A stretch of DNA of 64,000 nt from a phage: the sequence record PZ452598.1. One strand, written 5' to 3'. Both the position numbers and the translations under genes were made by a program. The notes under the pieces were generated by a model, which was not told the origin of the DNA, made no database searches, and saw only the letters and a list, made by a program, of their open reading frames with translations. Below are positions 51,623-58,704 of the stretch, piece by piece (positions within the stretch are counted from its first letter, which is position 1; every line of letters begins with the position of its first letter).

Positions 51623-52126
51623 TCAAGTATTGTAAAACATTTGATGCAATCGCTTATATTGCTGAATCATTCGGTCAGAAAAAGAAATTTGAGTTTCAAG
51701 CCATTCAATGTACTCTGCGGCAGCTTGCATTAAATTTCCTTCATAGCCATCGTTATTTTCTTGTGCAGCTAATTTAGCTAATGCGTATGAAATACGTTCA
51801 CCTTGAAAATCGGCTTTAGGCTTCTGAACAACTTGATTAGTTCGCTCTACAACTTCTTCAATTTCGCCATTTTCTACTGATTCAGTATTCCACAAACACC
51901 AATACGTAATTGGCTTATCGTAGATGTTAATAATCTTTCCATCAGAAAGTTCAATTTCAATAATTCCAGTGTCAGGCTCTATATCATCTTCACATTCTTT
52001 TACAAGTTCACGAACTTTAAAGACAGTACCTGCACTAAGTTCCGGCCAGTAATTACACAGCCCTGTATCAGCACGATTAATTCTAAACCATTTATCTACT
52101 GTAATCATGTCCCATCTCCATATCAA
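51623..52126 (-). CDS. hypothetical protein (161-167 aa), pin position
   Basis: ORF track; position downstream of gene 49 as T4 pin. Confidence 0.5.
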   Translation of the reverse strand: MIWRWDMITVDKWFRINRADTGLCNYWPELSAGTVFKVRELVKECEDDIEPDTGIIEIELSDGKIINIYDKPITYWCLWNTESVENGEIEEVVERTNQVVQKPKADFQGERISYALAKLAAQENNDGYEGNLMQAAAEYIEWLETQISFSDRMIQQYKRLHQMFYNT

Positions 52127-52231
52127 TTAAGTCATTTATCGTTGGTTCATTATACACCGTTTCTTCATCAGTGTAAACCGGTTCTTCCGGCTCTGGCTCT
52201 ACAGTTTCCCATCTAGCCGCCCACCAAGGTT

Positions 52232-52552
52232 TTATAGCGTAATCCATTCTCGTACTGTCTGAGTTACTACACGTTCTCGAAGCTCAACCAGTTCAACAGT
52301 AGGAACTGCATAATACCAGTCAGAATGGTAAGAACCTGAGCGAGATTCATTTACAGCCACATGTACATTATGTTTTGGACTAAAATAAACACACTGACGA
52401 TATTGGCATTTACCATCTTGCACCCAGTCTTCTATTTCGATAGGTTTAAGATAGTCGGAAAAATCGAAATCATAGTTTTCCGAAAATGCATCATGGTCTT
52501 CAATGATTTCGCTCAGAACTGCATCAACATCTAATTTATTTTCAATATTCAT
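52232..52552 (-). CDS. hypothetical protein (106 aa)
   Basis: ORF track. Confidence 0.5.
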   Translation of the reverse strand: MNIENKLDVDAVLSEIIEDHDAFSENYDFDFSDYLKPIEIEDWVQDGKCQYRQCVYFSPKHNVHVAVNESRSGSYHSDWYYAVPTVELVELRERVVTQTVREWITL

Positions 52553-52857
52553 TTTTCACACCACCAACTGCTTACTTCAAAATCGGGTTCGCCATGTTCC
52601 CAGAACCAGGGGCCGATAGGAATCCACTTACCTTCATCGGTGACGTCATATTCTTCGGATTTAAGCCCAACGTATCGCCATTCGACTTCATAAGCGGTAC
52701 CACCGATTACAACTGTGTTCTCGCCATACGGGTTAGACACAACAAAGTCTATACCTTCTGCTTTAGCTAACCAAATCATGTATTCATAGAGTTTATATTC
52801 CAGGTCGCCTTCTGTTCCATCGCCTAGAAAAATAATTTGTTCATTTAATTCTATCAT
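52549..52857 (-). CDS. hypothetical protein (102 aa)
   Basis: ORF track. Confidence 0.5.
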   Translation of the reverse strand: MIELNEQIIFLGDGTEGDLEYKLYEYMIWLAKAEGIDFVVSNPYGENTVVIGGTAYEVEWRYVGLKSEEYDVTDEGKWIPIGPWFWEHGEPDFEVSSWWCEK

Positions 52858-53117
52858 TTAAAGTATTCCCGCAATTGGTCAAATCCACCAATATGACTTC
52901 CATCAGGAGCAAATACCTGAGGCATTGTTAAGCCGATTTGAGTATCACGACCTAGTTTAGTCAGAAGCTCAGCAATTTTCTCATCATCAAAAACACCTTT
53001 TTCCGGCATAATGTTGATAAATTCAAACGGCTGTTTCTTCACAGTCAAAAGACGTTTTGCATTATCGCAATACACACATTTATGAATGTTGCTATCATAA
53101 CCATATACTTTAAACAT
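52854..53117 (-). CDS. nrdC: thioredoxin/glutaredoxin NrdC (87 aa)
   Basis: CVYC active site; 87 aa. Confidence 0.85.
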   Translation of the reverse strand: MFKVYGYDSNIHKCVYCDNAKRLLTVKKQPFEFINIMPEKGVFDDEKIAELLTKLGRDTQIGLTMPQVFAPDGSHIGGFDQLREYFK

Positions 53118-53361: not shown

Positions 53362-53662
53362 TTTCTTCTCGGTCAAATCGGTGTTTACAATGGCGACATT
53401 TATAACGAAGATTATTAGTCTGCCAATGGACCAATTGCACCTGTTCAGTTCCACATTCAGGGCAATTAGGAACGTTTTTAGAAGCCCTTTCGCGACGTTC
53501 AACCATGACCATTACAGAATCCCAATTAACAGGAGGGCTATAATCATCACAACCATAAATCTTTCCACGCATTTCCAGATCGTCTTCTTCACCAGCCATA
53601 ATAATTTTAATTAGACTAGAATTACTTGAAGCTGCAATGTCTTCTAATAGACGCTTTTTCAT
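53348..53662 (-). CDS. zinc-ribbon protein (104 aa)
   Basis: CPECG...CRHC C-terminal zinc ribbon. Confidence 0.5.
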
Positions 53663-54585
53663 TTCAATACCTCAATAGCATTACGTAAACCATTTGCTTT
53701 GGCGGTTAAATCCTTAAGAACTTTAGTATGCTCTTCAATCTGTTTTTCAACTTCAATCAAACGGGTACTGAGATATTCGCGTTCTTCTTTCATAGTATCA
53801 TTCCCATGATTGGGCTTTGGCGTAGGTTTAAATTTATTAGGGTCCTTTAACTTAATAACAACTTTAGTTTCAAACAGTGAAAGACCATAATTCGTATTAT
53901 CATCAAAGGATTCAACTACGTCCATTTTAGACAATAACGTACGAAGATTATAAGTCAAAGAACGAATCGTTTTATTATGTTTATTAGCTTCACATGGTTT
54001 CATATATGGAAGATTTTTATATATTTCATGCGGAGCACAAACAATAATTAACAATTCAAATGGTCCATTCTGTGATGATGGAATGAATTTAGCCGTAACC
54101 CAATCTTTTACATTTACATTAATAGTACGATCATCGCCATGACAAAACAGTCTACGAGAATGCTTAAAAAGCATATTCACATTATTATTAAATTCGTGTG
54201 AAAACTCACTGGCAAATTTTTCTTTACTATCTTTAGAAAACCATTCTTCTAAATAAGTTCTTTTCACGTCGTTAATAATATTAAATGTAACAACATTATC
54301 ATTTGATACATTAGTCTCAATGTAGCTTGGATACATAAATTTTTTAACATTATTAACAGCTATCACAGAAGATAGTAATCGGGAACGTTTGAACCACTCG
54401 AGCAAAGAACCAAGAGAATGTGAATACGCATTTTGTGTATCTTTACAAATATGGTTTTCCCATCCAATATAGTCTAAAAAATCACGAAGAATATTATTGA
54501 TTACTTCTCTATGTCCTTTCTGATAATCACGATGTTTAGTAATAAGACTGTCAAAATAATCAATATAATGTTTACGAGTTTTCAT
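53659..54585 (-). CDS. hypothetical protein (308 aa), coiled-coil C-terminus; paralog family member 1
   Basis: ORF track; C-terminal heptad-like tail. Confidence 0.6.
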   Translation of the reverse strand: MKTRKHYIDYFDSLITKHRDYQKGHREVINNILRDFLDYIGWENHICKDTQNAYSHSLGSLLEWFKRSRLLSSVIAVNNVKKFMYPSYIETNVSNDNVVTFNIINDVKRTYLEEWFSKDSKEKFASEFSHEFNNNVNMLFKHSRRLFCHGDDRTINVNVKDWVTAKFIPSSQNGPFELLIIVCAPHEIYKNLPYMKPCEANKHNKTIRSLTYNLRTLLSKMDVVESFDDNTNYGLSLFETKVVIKLKDPNKFKPTPKPNHGNDTMKEEREYLSTRLIEVEKQIEEHTKVLKDLTAKANGLRNAIEVLK

Positions 54586-54639
54586 GTTCTTCTCACTTGG
54601 TTAATGATTTATACTCCGAGCCATCCTTGGCTTTAAATT

Positions 54640-55692
54640 TTACTTAATTAACTGCAAAGCTTGTTCTAGACGATCAAGACGATTAACGGATTCTTCCCAA
54701 ATCTTTTTAGCCTGCTCATATTCTTTCTGCGCTTTATTAGAAATTTCTAGAACTTCTTTATAAGCTTTTTCTAGTGCAATAACTTCTGGACGAATTTCTA
54801 TCGGTTCAGGTGAATCATCAAGACATTCCATTAGTTCCTCAAGGGTAGTTTCTTCTTTAGGAGTATTCACAATTTCATCACATTTTTGTTGGTAAATTTC
54901 TTTACTAGTAGGTGAATAAGCACATTTCACTTCACGAAGGCTAATTACGAGTTTATATCCTTCCCAACCGCATATATTCTTAAAAGGATATGTATGAATA
55001 TTTTCTACTGTTTCCATACAAAGTAATGCGGTCTCTAATTGACGAGTTATAGTGCTAGCAATTGAGAAAAATTTATTAATATTCTTTTGGTTAGTTTCTG
55101 GTGTAAAAAATCCATAATTCACAAAAATAGATACTTTATTTTTATCAAGTTCATATTCTTTTATGATAATCATATCAGAAGCCAAAGGATGAATTTGACG
55201 ATAATCGCCATAACATAATTTAGAAGCTGATTTTAGAATTTGCTTCTTGAAAAGTCTGAAATTACTAATCCAACGACGAGTAAAAATATTCTCAGGGTCT
55301 TCTTTATTATTGAGATGATAAGAATTAACATCACCGAACCAATTATATCCTACTACATCTTTAGTTCGTTTAATTTCTTTCCCAAAATTACCAAGAATAT
55401 CCCGATTAACCAAATATGAAAGAAGACGAGACTCTTTAAAGGTTTTCTTGATAACATCTTTATCTACACGGCTAGAAATTTTACGAATTTCATGAATAAA
55501 TTTAGTAGAAGAAACAATACTTGCATCAACACTATTGAGCCACTGATTGATAATAGAAAGAACGCTATTTTGGCCAAACATCGGTATAGCTTTATCATCA
55601 ATAACGCTATTGAATGATTTGATATATTCGTTACGAGTCATATTAATCTCCTCAGTAGAAAGTAAGAACATTATACCACATCCTTGTGGCAA
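54640..55692 (-). CDS. hypothetical protein (350 aa), paralog family member 2
   Basis: Shares FRLFKKQILKSASKL-type segment and coiled-coil tail with neighbours. Confidence 0.6.
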   Translation of the reverse strand: MPQGCGIMFLLSTEEINMTRNEYIKSFNSVIDDKAIPMFGQNSVLSIINQWLNSVDASIVSSTKFIHEIRKISSRVDKDVIKKTFKESRLLSYLVNRDILGNFGKEIKRTKDVVGYNWFGDVNSYHLNNKEDPENIFTRRWISNFRLFKKQILKSASKLCYGDYRQIHPLASDMIIIKEYELDKNKVSIFVNYGFFTPETNQKNINKFFSIASTITRQLETALLCMETVENIHTYPFKNICGWEGYKLVISLREVKCAYSPTSKEIYQQKCDEIVNTPKEETTLEELMECLDDSPEPIEIRPEVIALEKAYKEVLEISNKAQKEYEQAKKIWEESVNRLDRLEQALQLIK

Positions 55693-55702
55693 AGTAAACT
55701 AG
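55668..55702 (-). promoter_or_regulatory. early promoter (-35 GTTTAC 55695-55700, -10 TATAAT 55670-55675)
   Basis: Consensus early promoter on minus strand. Confidence 0.55.
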
Positions 55703-56721
55703 TTCAGTGCATTTAGTGCATTGTTCAGTTTAGAACGTTGCTTTGTCAGATTTTGAACCCTTGACTGAGCTTGTTCTAACGCCTTTTCAGCTTCTAGCAC
55801 TTCATTGGTCGCTTTAACTAATTCAGCATCTACTGCCTTAAGAGACTTCTCAATCGCATCCGCGTGCCATTTTTCAACAGGTTTAAGACTTGGATTTTCA
55901 ACAGGAAGAAAATTCACTTTATTGAATTTCCATGCATCTTTATTACCTGAGCTATACATCCAAAATTTAGGATCGTTTGATAAGTAATTAGATAAATTTA
56001 AGTTATCTTGCACTTCTTGCTTTTTCTCTTGTGTGACTTCGTCCTTTCTCAAAAATTCATATTTAAATGAAACGATCATATCAAGTTCATATGATGTTGT
56101 ATCTAACTTAAATCGTTCAAAACGAGGTAAAATCTTAGATTGAACAGCAGCAACAACATCCATATACTTAAATGCTTCTGTCAACTGCGATTTAAGGCAT
56201 TCGCAAATTGAAAGAGAATTTTTTGTATTAGGTTTAAAGCTAATTCGTGCAGTTCTATTATTTTCTTTTAACGGTCTTACTTCCATCTGAAGAGTATAAC
56301 CATCAAATTTCAGATTCTTTAAGTTAATGTCAGAGCCTTTTAATCGACTAGCAGTAGACAAAATTTGCTTTAATTGTCTACGGAACAGAGCAATAAATCT
56401 CCATTCAATACGATAATGATTTGGATTGAAAAATCCAGATGATAAATCGACCTTACTTTGACCAACGCCTTGAACAAATAGAGGATTTTTATAATCAATA
56501 GTTTTACAGAAATCGGTGAGCTGTTCACGAGCAGTCATTTGAGTAATATACCCTGCTTTACTAAAATTACGCACCCATTCACTGCTATTCGTATACTTAA
56601 AGTGATGAATAACACGATTAACTTTATCAGGGTCTAAATTATTTTCACACAAAAATGTCATAACATCACGAGTATAGCTGGCATTACGAACCATATCTTC
56701 AATTTGAGAACGAGTTTTCAT
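55699..56721 (-). CDS. hypothetical protein (340 aa), paralog family member 3
   Basis: Segment ALFRRQLKQILSTASRL and coiled-coil tail. Confidence 0.6.
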   Translation of the reverse strand: MKTRSQIEDMVRNASYTRDVMTFLCENNLDPDKVNRVIHHFKYTNSSEWVRNFSKAGYITQMTAREQLTDFCKTIDYKNPLFVQGVGQSKVDLSSGFFNPNHYRIEWRFIALFRRQLKQILSTASRLKGSDINLKNLKFDGYTLQMEVRPLKENNRTARISFKPNTKNSLSICECLKSQLTEAFKYMDVVAAVQSKILPRFERFKLDTTSYELDMIVSFKYEFLRKDEVTQEKKQEVQDNLNLSNYLSNDPKFWMYSSGNKDAWKFNKVNFLPVENPSLKPVEKWHADAIEKSLKAVDAELVKATNEVLEAEKALEQAQSRVQNLTKQRSKLNNALNALN

Positions 56722-56729
56722 GGTGTTCC

Positions 56730-57644
56730 TTAAGATTTAAGTAAATCAACAATTTTAATTAACTTTTCACGCTCAGATTTAGCTTTACTACTCAATCCAG
56801 ATAGTCTGAAAATTTCATCATCATATTGTTGAATAGAAATATTCAGCTCTTCAATTTGCTTATTAAAATAATCAATTTGTTCAGAATGTTTTTCGTTACT
56901 ACGAACTGGTACAGGTTTTGTAGGCAATTTAGTTGAACTGGATTCATTCGGGCGATAAATTAAAATGCAATTTGAACCAATCGGGCATTTAGCACCAGAT
57001 GAATATTCTAACGTTCCAGCTTCTTTTAAAACTTCAAAAGCTAAACAGAGATGATGCCCCATATTAACATAATCAGTAGAGCGAGCTCTGATGTAATAAT
57101 CATCTCCACGAGTGCTAAATTTAAAGCATTTAAGGTCTTCTGTATTATTAGTTTTAAAAATCATTTGTTTATCTAGACCTTTAGCCAATCGAGCACCTAA
57201 TGCTAATAATCGTCGTTGATTTTCCCACAAATCTGCGATCATTTGGTCAAATGATAATTTCGGCATTAGCCGACCATAAAGGTCATATCCTTTATTATAA
57301 TTGCGAAGGATTTCACTCGCATTAATACGAGACAACGCTCCAATTTTATTAAGGGCTTTCATAATACGATTAGATAAACTCATTCCAGACCCGTTTGTTC
57401 GCTGTAAATGTTTTTCTAATCCAAATCCAATATCAACTTTAAATTTATCTAAAATTTCAGCATGAACATCTCTGTCAATAACATTCAAATCCAAAGTTGG
57501 GTTAAATCTATGAAAAAATTTATCTGGCTCTCCACGACGTAAAACAGTCCATTCATTCATCATTTTTTTATTAACTAAAGATTTAATTACTGCGTTGACA
57601 TTATTAATTACTACTGACATATTTTCCTCACTCAATTTTACCAA
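56730..57644 (-). CDS. hypothetical protein (304 aa), paralog family member 4
   Basis: Segment LWENQRRLLALGARLAKG and coiled-coil tail. Confidence 0.6.
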   Translation of the reverse strand: MVKLSEENMSVVINNVNAVIKSLVNKKMMNEWTVLRRGEPDKFFHRFNPTLDLNVIDRDVHAEILDKFKVDIGFGLEKHLQRTNGSGMSLSNRIMKALNKIGALSRINASEILRNYNKGYDLYGRLMPKLSFDQMIADLWENQRRLLALGARLAKGLDKQMIFKTNNTEDLKCFKFSTRGDDYYIRARSTDYVNMGHHLCLAFEVLKEAGTLEYSSGAKCPIGSNCILIYRPNESSSTKLPTKPVPVRSNEKHSEQIDYFNKQIEELNISIQQYDDEIFRLSGLSSKAKSEREKLIKIVDLLKS

Positions 57645-58029: not shown

Positions 58030-58084
58030 AATAATCTCAATTAAAAGGGCTTAGAACCATTATACCATCCTTGGTATAAAGCGG

Positions 58085-58612
58085 TTATGCGAGTACCGTA
58101 TTTAACCGTTCTTCAAACTTCCGAAGAGTGTTCTGGCGTTCAGCTCTTTGCTTTTTGTAAGTTTCAATACGCTCTGAAATGAGAGTGTATCGTTCATTTA
58201 CTGATTCTTTCATAAAATCAGGAATTTCACGAGAAGCTTTAATCTCGTCAAATTTATCAATAACAGCTTGCTCTTCAGCAATTAAGTTATCATACATCAA
58301 AATATCTTTCTTGATGAACTCAATATCTTCTTGAGTTACACGAGATAATTTAGATGCTTTATCCTTTTTGTACTGTTCGTTAGTATCACGAGACCAGTGT
58401 AATGTACGATTTTTATTCGTATTCTTGTAAATTTCTACAATACCAATCTCATCGATAATAACGATCCAATTCCAACGGGATTTGTAAATTTGTCCTCCAT
58501 TAACAGTGATTTCACCTCCGATTGAGATGTCATTAAAGAACTTGCTTTGTGCTTCTGATTTAAATTTACCATCGTTGTAATTTACCAGGTTGAAAATATC
58601 TTTAGCGTTCAT
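58085..58612 (-). CDS. hypothetical protein (about 175 aa from Met at 58610-58612)
   Basis: ORF track 58085..58657; start moved to Met with GGAGGA SD downstream of promoter. Confidence 0.55.
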   Translation of the reverse strand: MNAKDIFNLVNYNDGKFKSEAQSKFFNDISIGGEITVNGGQIYKSRWNWIVIIDEIGIVEIYKNTNKNRTLHWSRDTNEQYKKDKASKLSRVTQEDIEFIKKDILMYDNLIAEEQAVIDKFDEIKASREIPDFMKESVNERYTLISERIETYKKQRAERQNTLRKFEERLNTVLA

Positions 58613-58637
58613 TTTGTGTTCCTCCGTAGTTGATAGT

Positions 58638-58672
58638 TGTATAGTACCACAGCTCAAACGGAAAGTAAACCG
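58638..58672 (-). promoter_or_regulatory. early promoter with conserved leader cassette (-35 GTTTAC 58665-58670)
   Basis: Same GTTTAC...GGTACTATACAACTATCAACTAC module as other copies. Confidence 0.5.
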
Positions 58673-58679
58673 GTAAAAT

Positions 58680-58704
58680 GAAAAAAAGTCTCCCGAAGGA
58701 GACT
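58680..58704 (-). terminator. intrinsic terminator
   Basis: AGUCUCC-UUCG-GGAGACU hairpin followed by UUUUUUU on minus-strand RNA. Confidence 0.65.

Follow-up and report, generated by a model that had tools for sequence, protein, structure and literature searches.

A T4 clone carrying compensatory deletions cannot infect Escherichia coli ECOR17, and infection is regained when the SIR2-domain defense gene dsr1 is deleted from the host (Srikant, Guegler & Laub, eLife 2022, PMC9391042). In the same study, T4 nrdC.5 alone, expressed from a plasmid, restored plating of the deletion clone on MG1655 with dsr1, so that nrdC.5 counteracts Dsr1 genetically. The study handled nrdC.5 as a single uncharacterized early gene, without a mechanism, and nrdC.3, nrdC.4, and nrdC.6 are not in its text. 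We found nothing later in the literature on nrdC.5 or its anti-Dsr1 mechanism, and nothing on nrdC.3, nrdC.4, or nrdC.6. According to a 2026 preprint, what triggers the TPR sensor of Dsr1 is a phage major capsid protein, which is a late protein (PMC12803255). In SPbeta-like phages, DSAD1 neutralizes another defense-associated sirtuin NADase, DSR2, without enzymatic activity. Here, we analyze nrdC.5 together with its neighbors nrdC.3, nrdC.4, and nrdC.6 in a 64,000-nucleotide stretch of phage DNA (sequence record PZ452598.1), which we call the window and to which positions refer unless another record is named.

The four genes are remote, ancient paralogs of one superfamily that spans the families PF26897, PF23882, and PF26899. 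We unite them because profile homology is joined by a shared model architecture and by shared structural neighbors in Foldseek searches. Pfam and PHROGs already place nrdC.3 and nrdC.4 together, but keep three families apart (PF26897, PF23882, and PF26899; phrog 1435, 2351, and 2257), all without a function. Joining nrdC.5 and nrdC.6 to the nrdC.3/nrdC.4 family appears to be new, as does the pattern of variable heads and conserved tails described below; the anti-Dsr1 phenotype of nrdC.5 is already published (PMC9391042).

Four consecutive early genes share remote homology

The locus, a 4.1-kb stretch, matches several phage T4 records at 100% identity. Its four consecutive minus-strand open reading frames (ORFs), first noticed in a sequence-only reading of this DNA, are nrdC.3, nrdC.4, nrdC.5, and nrdC.6 of the T4 reference annotation. 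They sit in the early nrdC-tk region, with nrdC.2 on one side and nrdC.7, a membrane-protein gene, on the other. On the minus strand, nrdC.3 occupies 53659-54585 (308 amino acids; Pfam PF26897 Phage_T4_Y04OP / phrog_1435, E=8e-101), and nrdC.4 occupies 54640-55641 (333 amino acids from the ATG at 55641; phrog_1435, E=7e-168, with homologs that carry PF26897). These are followed by nrdC.5 at 55699-56721 (340 amino acids; Pfam DUF7235 PF23882, E=5e-126 / phrog_2351) and nrdC.6 at 56730-57620 (296 amino acids from the ATG at 57620; Pfam PF26899 Phage_T4_Y05B / phrog_2257). The nrdC.5 ORF is 100% identical to T4 records and is thus the gene that was tested against Dsr1.

The initial size range of 304-350 amino acids holds for nrdC.3 and nrdC.5, but nrdC.4 (not 350 residues) and nrdC.6 (not 304) had been over-extended to upstream TTG starts. 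The nrdC.4 ATG is preceded by a GAGGAG Shine-Dalgarno sequence, while TTG 55692 falls within a promoter, and the nrdC.6 ATG has GAGG upstream. That promoter (55670-55698, minus strand; GTTTACT, 17 nt, TGGTATAAT) sits between nrdC.5 and nrdC.4 and drives nrdC.4 and nrdC.3. It had been proposed from the letters alone as an early promoter belonging to one of the four genes (55668-55702), and it coincides with “early promoter 50.0” of GenBank U76612.1, where the depositor marked its -35 and -10 signals. A consensus scan gave it 10/12 matches plus an extended -10.

Pairwise comparison by BLASTP linked nrdC.3 and nrdC.4 (23.6% identity over 271 amino acids, E=1e-3), which was the sole significant pair among T4 proteins. 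The nrdC.4-nrdC.5 pair was marginal (E=0.25), and there was no significant match for nrdC.3-nrdC.5, nrdC.3-nrdC.6, nrdC.4-nrdC.6, or nrdC.5-nrdC.6 (E>0.1). Because only one pair was significant by this method, family profiles were required; homologs were gathered for each gene, and the family profiles were compared with hhalign. At full length, the nrdC.3 and nrdC.4 profiles aligned with 98.4% probability (E=7e-15, 211 columns), and those of nrdC.4 and nrdC.5 with 93.6% probability (E=2e-7, 252 columns). When the last 60 residues were cut so that heads alone were compared, the values were E=1.6e-14 for nrdC.3 vs. nrdC.4 and E=1e-6 for nrdC.4 vs. nrdC.5. The profile signal thus persists without the tails, and the coiled coil is therefore not its source.

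The most divergent of the four paralogs is nrdC.6, which gave E=0.007-0.04 against each single family profile, which is not significant. Against a merged nrdC.3+nrdC.4+nrdC.5 profile the value was E=2.3e-4, and against an enlarged superfamily profile it was E=6.7e-8 (94.6% probability, 148 columns). The enlarged profile consisted of the merged families plus four distant representatives taken from an exhaustive protein search. Two negative controls against the same profile, nrdC.8 and reversed nrdC.6, gave E=0.079 and E=0.11, respectively. Identity among the four paralogs is ~10-24%, and the columns conserved across them are mostly hydrophobic.

Given the four BLASTP pairs at E>0.1 and the single-family values of nrdC.6, the resemblance could in principle be an artifact of composition, with AT-rich DNA and coiled-coil tails lending a false likeness to four unrelated neighbors. 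However, the head-only profile comparisons stay highly significant, and the controls remained at E of ~0.1 compared to 6.7e-8 for nrdC.6. The order of secondary-structure elements also agrees, and Foldseek neighbors are shared in both directions. We consider an artifact highly improbable.

The predicted structures place the shared segments in a common context. AlphaFold2 models cover nrdC.4 and nrdC.6, with a mean predicted local distance difference test score of 83 and 78.5, respectively. The elements follow one another identically in both models, beginning with about six helices at the N-terminus and a small beta unit. A helix-helix-short-helix block comes next, then a beta-hairpin, a long helix, and another hairpin, and a low-confidence linker leads to a long C-terminal helix. 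We read this as the family architecture, in which a bundle of about six N-terminal helices precedes a central alpha/beta domain (three helices, hairpin, long helix, hairpin), followed by a disordered linker and an amphipathic C-terminal helix of 45-55 residues.

The shared motif lies in the helix-helix-short-helix block, which spans residues 119-148 in the nrdC.4 model and 124-151 in the nrdC.6 model. The motif block is located at 54127-54192 in nrdC.3 (amino acids 132-153, FNNNVNMLFKHSRRLFCHGDDR), at 55198-55260 in nrdC.4 (amino acids 128-148, FRLFKKQILKSASKLCYGDYR; model helices 119-130, 132-142, and 145-148), at 56323-56385 in nrdC.5 (amino acids 113-133, FRRQLKQILSTASRLKGSDIN), and at 57168-57230 in nrdC.6 (amino acids 131-151, LWENQRRLLALGARLAKGLDK; model helices 124-133, 135-145, and 148-151), always on the minus strand. 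These segments, already seen by eye in the translations, occupy the same columns in the profile alignments of all four families. They reflect true homology, and the similarity extends beyond composition.

In a Foldseek search of predicted viral structures, both models matched the same full-length proteins of T4-like phages (E 1e-7 to 1e-4), whose hosts are Enterobacter, Pectobacterium, Acinetobacter, Klebsiella, and Yersinia. For nrdC.4, a further direct match of the model was NrdC.6 of phage JS10 (E=5.6e-5). In a decoy variant of the immune inhibition that we favor below, the central alpha/beta domain would mimic a neck or tail-terminator-type protein, and the early paralogs would act as structural-protein decoys that saturate host sensors of conserved virion proteins. 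Both Dsr1 and DSR2 are reported to sense virion proteins, which would suit such decoys. Yet the reported Dsr1 trigger is a capsid protein rather than a terminator (PMC12803255), and the models cover nrdC.4 and nrdC.6 rather than nrdC.5 itself. We regard this explanation as quite improbable.

Conserved tails and variable heads

Each of the four proteins ends in a heptad-like helix, as first proposed from the translations and now seen in the AlphaFold2 models of nrdC.4 and nrdC.6 and in a heptad scan of nrdC.3 and nrdC.5. In minus-strand coordinates, the amphipathic helix of nrdC.3 lies at 53662-53799 (amino acids 263-308), and that of nrdC.4 lies at 54643-54789 (amino acids 285-333, ending RLEQALQLIK; model helix 285-332). 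The nrdC.5 helix is at 55702-55866 (amino acids 286-340, ending KLNNALNALN; heptad scan maximum 0.9), and the nrdC.6 helices are at 56733-56894 (amino acids 243-296, ending KLIKIVDLLKS; model helices 243-272 and 278-295). All four tails close with a similar L-x-x-A-(I/L)-x-x-L-K motif.

When orthologs are compared, the C-terminal helix is better conserved than any other region in almost every pair, with 57-76% identity compared to 23-55% in the heads. This difference was found in nrdC.4 orthologs (57-76% in the tail, 23-55% in the head), in nrdC.6 orthologs (56-70% in the tail, 26-50% in the head, with 68% in one close relative), and between nrdC.3 and its JS09 ortholog (70% in the tail, 52-66% in the head). 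Divergent nrdC.5 orthologs were lower (24-40%), mostly with the same trend of tail over head.

The nrdC.6 tail also separates the window from the reference genome. In NC_000866, nrdC.6 (52066-52893) is one A short relative to position ~56842 of the window (GCTG-ATATT vs. GCTGAATATT). The missing A shifts the frame, resulting in an annotated product of 275 amino acids without the conserved C-terminal helix. The 296-amino acid product of the window is identical to a protein cluster of 940 members. Because this form agrees with that cluster and with all orthologs, the NC_000866 annotation probably stems from an error in sequencing or from a mutation specific to that strain.

Copy number and gene turnover

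When 1.84 billion representative proteins were searched exhaustively with a profile, only 17 matched at E<=0.001. All of those that we assigned to a class or located on a contig were proteins of T4-like phages or fragments of them, with no cellular homolog that hinted at a function. A scan of IMG/VR with nrdC.3 returned only two near-identical loci. The family has a constant position downstream of nrdC/nrdC.2 in the nrdC-tk region of T4, JE01, JS09, VR20, KIT01, SP18, JD18, and a metagenomic contig.

Among the T4 relatives examined, the number of copies ranges from one to four, and sequences diverge fast. Four copies are present in T4 and JE01 (Tequatrovirus) and three in each of JS09 (Mosigvirus), VR20 (Gaprivervirus), and KIT01 (Dhakavirus). 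A single copy is found at the same map position in Klebsiella phage JD18 (Jiaodavirus) and in L011, a T4-like phage from a metagenome that is divergent. None of the T4 families is clearly nearer than the others to the single-copy relatives JD18_070, L011, and L012, whose distances to them are roughly equal. The four genes had initially been taken for a locally amplified family, and they are indeed duplicates of one gene, but the amplification is ancient rather than recent, given paralog identities of ~10-24%, three-copy sets in several genera, and the one copy in JD18.

The single-member phages also carry a conserved protein of 251-262 amino acids, without a Pfam match, shortly upstream of the family gene (L011 2898-3686; L012 103-858; L013 4052-4840, which is JD18_071). 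The two genes are direct neighbors in L011 and JD18, whereas in L012 three small ORFs lie between them. No relation of this protein to the nrdC.3-nrdC.6 superfamily was detectable (E>0.04).

Rearranged forms of the family genes are common in natural phages. In Salmonella phage Manna (L009 4215-5252), nrdC.6 and nrdC.4 are fused in frame at a QQYDDEI/QQKCDEI microhomology, and nrdC.5 is lost. ACG-C40 (L008 4802-5213) retains only nrdC.6, with an N-terminal stub of nrdC.5 beside a C-terminal remnant of nrdC.3, and P0120 encodes an nrdC.5::nrdC.3 hybrid ORF. Residues 177-259 of nrdC.6 are internally duplicated in Shigella phage Sf25 (P0121). An nrdC.5-like gene is split in SP18 (L010 4038-4942), as is nrdC.4 in T2.

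Sequence divergence is high, with cross-genus identity of 23-56% for nrdC.3-nrdC.6 compared to 83-90% for the neighbors nrdC and gp49. In otherwise near-identical genomes, nrdC.3 exists in three allele classes (>90%, ~60%, and ~56%). Within Tequatrovirus, pairwise ratios of nonsynonymous to synonymous substitution rates (dN/dS) were 0.16-0.33 for nrdC.3-nrdC.5 and 0.05-0.09 for nrdC.6, compared to 0-0.08 for gp49, nrdC, and nrdC.1. This pattern is one of relaxed purifying selection on intact genes.

A candidate counter-defense family

The sequence-only reading gave the four genes no assigned function, which is outdated for nrdC.5 since this gene overcomes Dsr1 (PMC9391042). Its suggestion of a host-range, anti-defense, or exclusion role stands for nrdC.5 in the anti-defense sense and would extend to nrdC.3, nrdC.4, and nrdC.6 by inference, but a membrane or exclusion type of protein is rejected, as no hydrophobic run exceeds seven residues and no transmembrane segment is present. 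The absence of catalytic motifs by eye was borne out by sequence searches of Pfam, NCBIfam, PADLOC, and the PDB, which turned up no enzyme or catalytic family. The Pfam copy scanned lacks the newer PF26897 and PF26899, and the PDB sequence searches, run with two family profiles, returned no chain at E<=1.

Several other candidates were rejected. Pfam matches to Prefoldin, CENP-F, and BRE1 were coiled-coil noise, and BrxC, LmuB, and PgrA were sub-threshold coiled-coil matches in PADLOC and NCBIfam. DNA mimicry is ruled out because the proteins are basic or neutral. An enzyme that reconstitutes NAD+, as in NARP-type counter-defense, was rejected, since Pfam and NCBIfam yielded no enzyme family and the conserved columns are mostly hydrophobic. 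The proteins are also not thioredoxins or glutaredoxins, as CxxC is absent in all four and neither family was matched in Pfam. Many T4-like GenBank records call homologs of nrdC.1-nrdC.11, these four included, “thioredoxin,” a label that was apparently carried over from the gene names nrdC.x.

We favor, with a probability of roughly 55%, the explanation that nrdC.3-nrdC.6 are a dispensable early family whose proteins, variable in the head and conserved in the tail, inhibit host immunity. This explanation builds on the paralogy, architecture, head/tail pattern, early promoter, and gene turnover described above. The four genes derive by ancient duplication from one early gene of T4-like phages (Straboviridae). 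The fast-evolving head would bind and neutralize a particular host immune protein, which for nrdC.5 would be the SIR2-TPR NADase Dsr1, and the conserved tail would either oligomerize the protein or dock it to a conserved partner. Duplication and head divergence could then allow one scaffold to cover several host defenses, with genes lost, fused, or split where the matching defense is not met. The superfamily link and the head/tail pattern together nominate three further T4 genes as counter-defense candidates. For nrdC.3, nrdC.4, and nrdC.6 we infer the anti-defense roles themselves, and direct binding as the mode of action and oligomerization through the tail are likewise presumed.

Several points weigh against this explanation. 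Functional data exist for nrdC.5 only, and its effect on Dsr1 could be indirect. Pairwise dN/dS within Tequatrovirus revealed no gene-wide positive selection. Moreover, nrdC.6 is both under strong purifying selection (dN/dS 0.05-0.09) and the most widely retained of the four (742 records), which a housekeeping role would fit equally well. Finally, isoelectric points of 9.0-9.4 for nrdC.3, nrdC.5, and nrdC.6 would suit nucleic-acid binding.

The genes could accordingly be true paralogs that encode early nucleic-acid-binding or regulatory proteins that target DNA, RNA, or transcription of the host or the phage, with the effect of nrdC.5 on Dsr1 being indirect, for example through the timing or availability of the trigger. 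The basic character of the proteins agrees with this, with positive charge concentrated around the helix-helix motif, as do the helical N-terminal domain in the nrdC.4 and nrdC.6 models, the conservation and wide retention of nrdC.6, and the late character of the Dsr1 trigger reported so far, the major capsid protein (PMC12803255). However, sequence searches of Pfam, NCBIfam, and the PDB gave no DNA- or RNA-binding family, and the genes are often lost, split, or fused in natural phages. Plasmid-borne nrdC.5 alone also rescues plating specifically on dsr1+ cells (PMC9391042). On balance, we find a nucleic-acid role unlikely.

In a more elaborate version of immune inhibition, each head, produced early, would clamp or act as a decoy for a different one of the pattern-recognition sensors with which the host detects virion proteins. 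Its central domain would resemble neck and tail-terminator proteins, and the unusually conserved tails would join the paralogs in one homo- or hetero-oligomeric complex. We consider such a modular toolkit distinctly unlikely, but if it were true, the number of genes (one to four) would set how many defenses a T4-like phage disarms.

Returning to the inhibitor family that we favor, its consequences extend beyond this locus. T4 is the reference phage, yet about half of its genes still lack an assigned function. Should nrdC.3, nrdC.4, and nrdC.6 be remote paralogs of the only gene known to defeat Dsr1, three “hypothetical proteins” would become candidate inhibitors of other defense systems. The four genes would also offer a clear case of scaffold diversification by duplication, fusion, and loss in an arms race. 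In addition, a copy number of one to four would bear on host-range prediction for T4-like therapeutic phages.

Other promoter-like motifs and a nearby deletion

The nrdC.4 promoter contains CACAAGGATGTGGTATAAT, a variant of the intergenic motif CCAAGGATGG. The motif itself lies upstream of nrdC.7 (58050-58085), where it is followed by TATAAT, giving TGGTATAAT, and again upstream of nrdC.3 (54600-54640), where it is followed by GTATAAAT. The T4 late-promoter consensus is TATAAATA, and GTATAAAT is close to it. Judging by these motifs, the sites upstream of nrdC.7 and nrdC.3 may be further promoters; U76612.1 carries no promoter annotation at either.

A strong hairpin resembling an intrinsic terminator is present on the minus strand at 58687-58704, between rI.-1 and the nrdC.8 promoter, with AGTCTCCTTCGGGAGACT followed by TTTTTTT. 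The equivalent T4 region has a “terminator” feature in U76612.1.

The window is phage T4 DNA but lacks ~4.8 kb that contain nrdC.9, nrdC.10, nrdC.11, mobD, and mobD.1-mobD.5 (compare NC_000866 53926-58741), and nrdC.8 directly adjoins rI.-1. The deletion junction at 58632-58652 is a 21-bp repeat, GATAGTTGTATAGTACCACAG. In NC_000866, this repeat is found next to a GTTTAC hexamer at two sites, upstream of nrdC.8 and upstream of mobD.5, and U76612.1 annotates -35 and -10 signals at the nrdC.8-upstream copy. Because the junction repeat adjoins GTTTAC at both reference sites, its placement suggests that the deletion arose by recombination between two promoter regions. The unbroken junction was absent from all records of the phage collection searched.

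Comparison with known systems

Any fold match of the central domain to tail terminator or completion proteins (lambda gpU, SPP1 gp17-like, DUF3168) lies in the twilight zone, and sequence similarity is absent. The nrdC.3-nrdC.6 proteins are two to three times larger and have extra helical domains. Tail terminators would also be expected as late genes in a virion structural module, whereas these genes are early, lie outside that module in the nrdC-tk region, and include an annotated early promoter.

For NrdC.5, the closest functional analogy is DSAD1, as a protein that disables a defense-associated sirtuin NADase without being an enzyme. The target of DSAD1 is DSR2 and not Dsr1, and a DSAD1-type action of NrdC.5 would mean that it binds the sensor domain of the sirtuin in competition with the trigger. 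No sequence similarity to DSAD1 emerged, and the two family profiles found no PDB chain at E<=1.

Within T4 itself, tifA, dmd, adfA/61.2, ipI, and ipIII are dispensable, mostly early, directed at one defense each, and readily lost or amplified (PMC9391042). These are small single genes, whereas nrdC.3-nrdC.6 are four paralogs of 34-40 kDa with a conserved coiled-coil tail. The anti-Dsr1 gene NrdC.5 of T4 (PMC9391042) is the same gene as the ORF at 55699-56721, and nrdC.3, nrdC.4, and nrdC.6 are its remote paralogs, which share its architecture and its genomic block.

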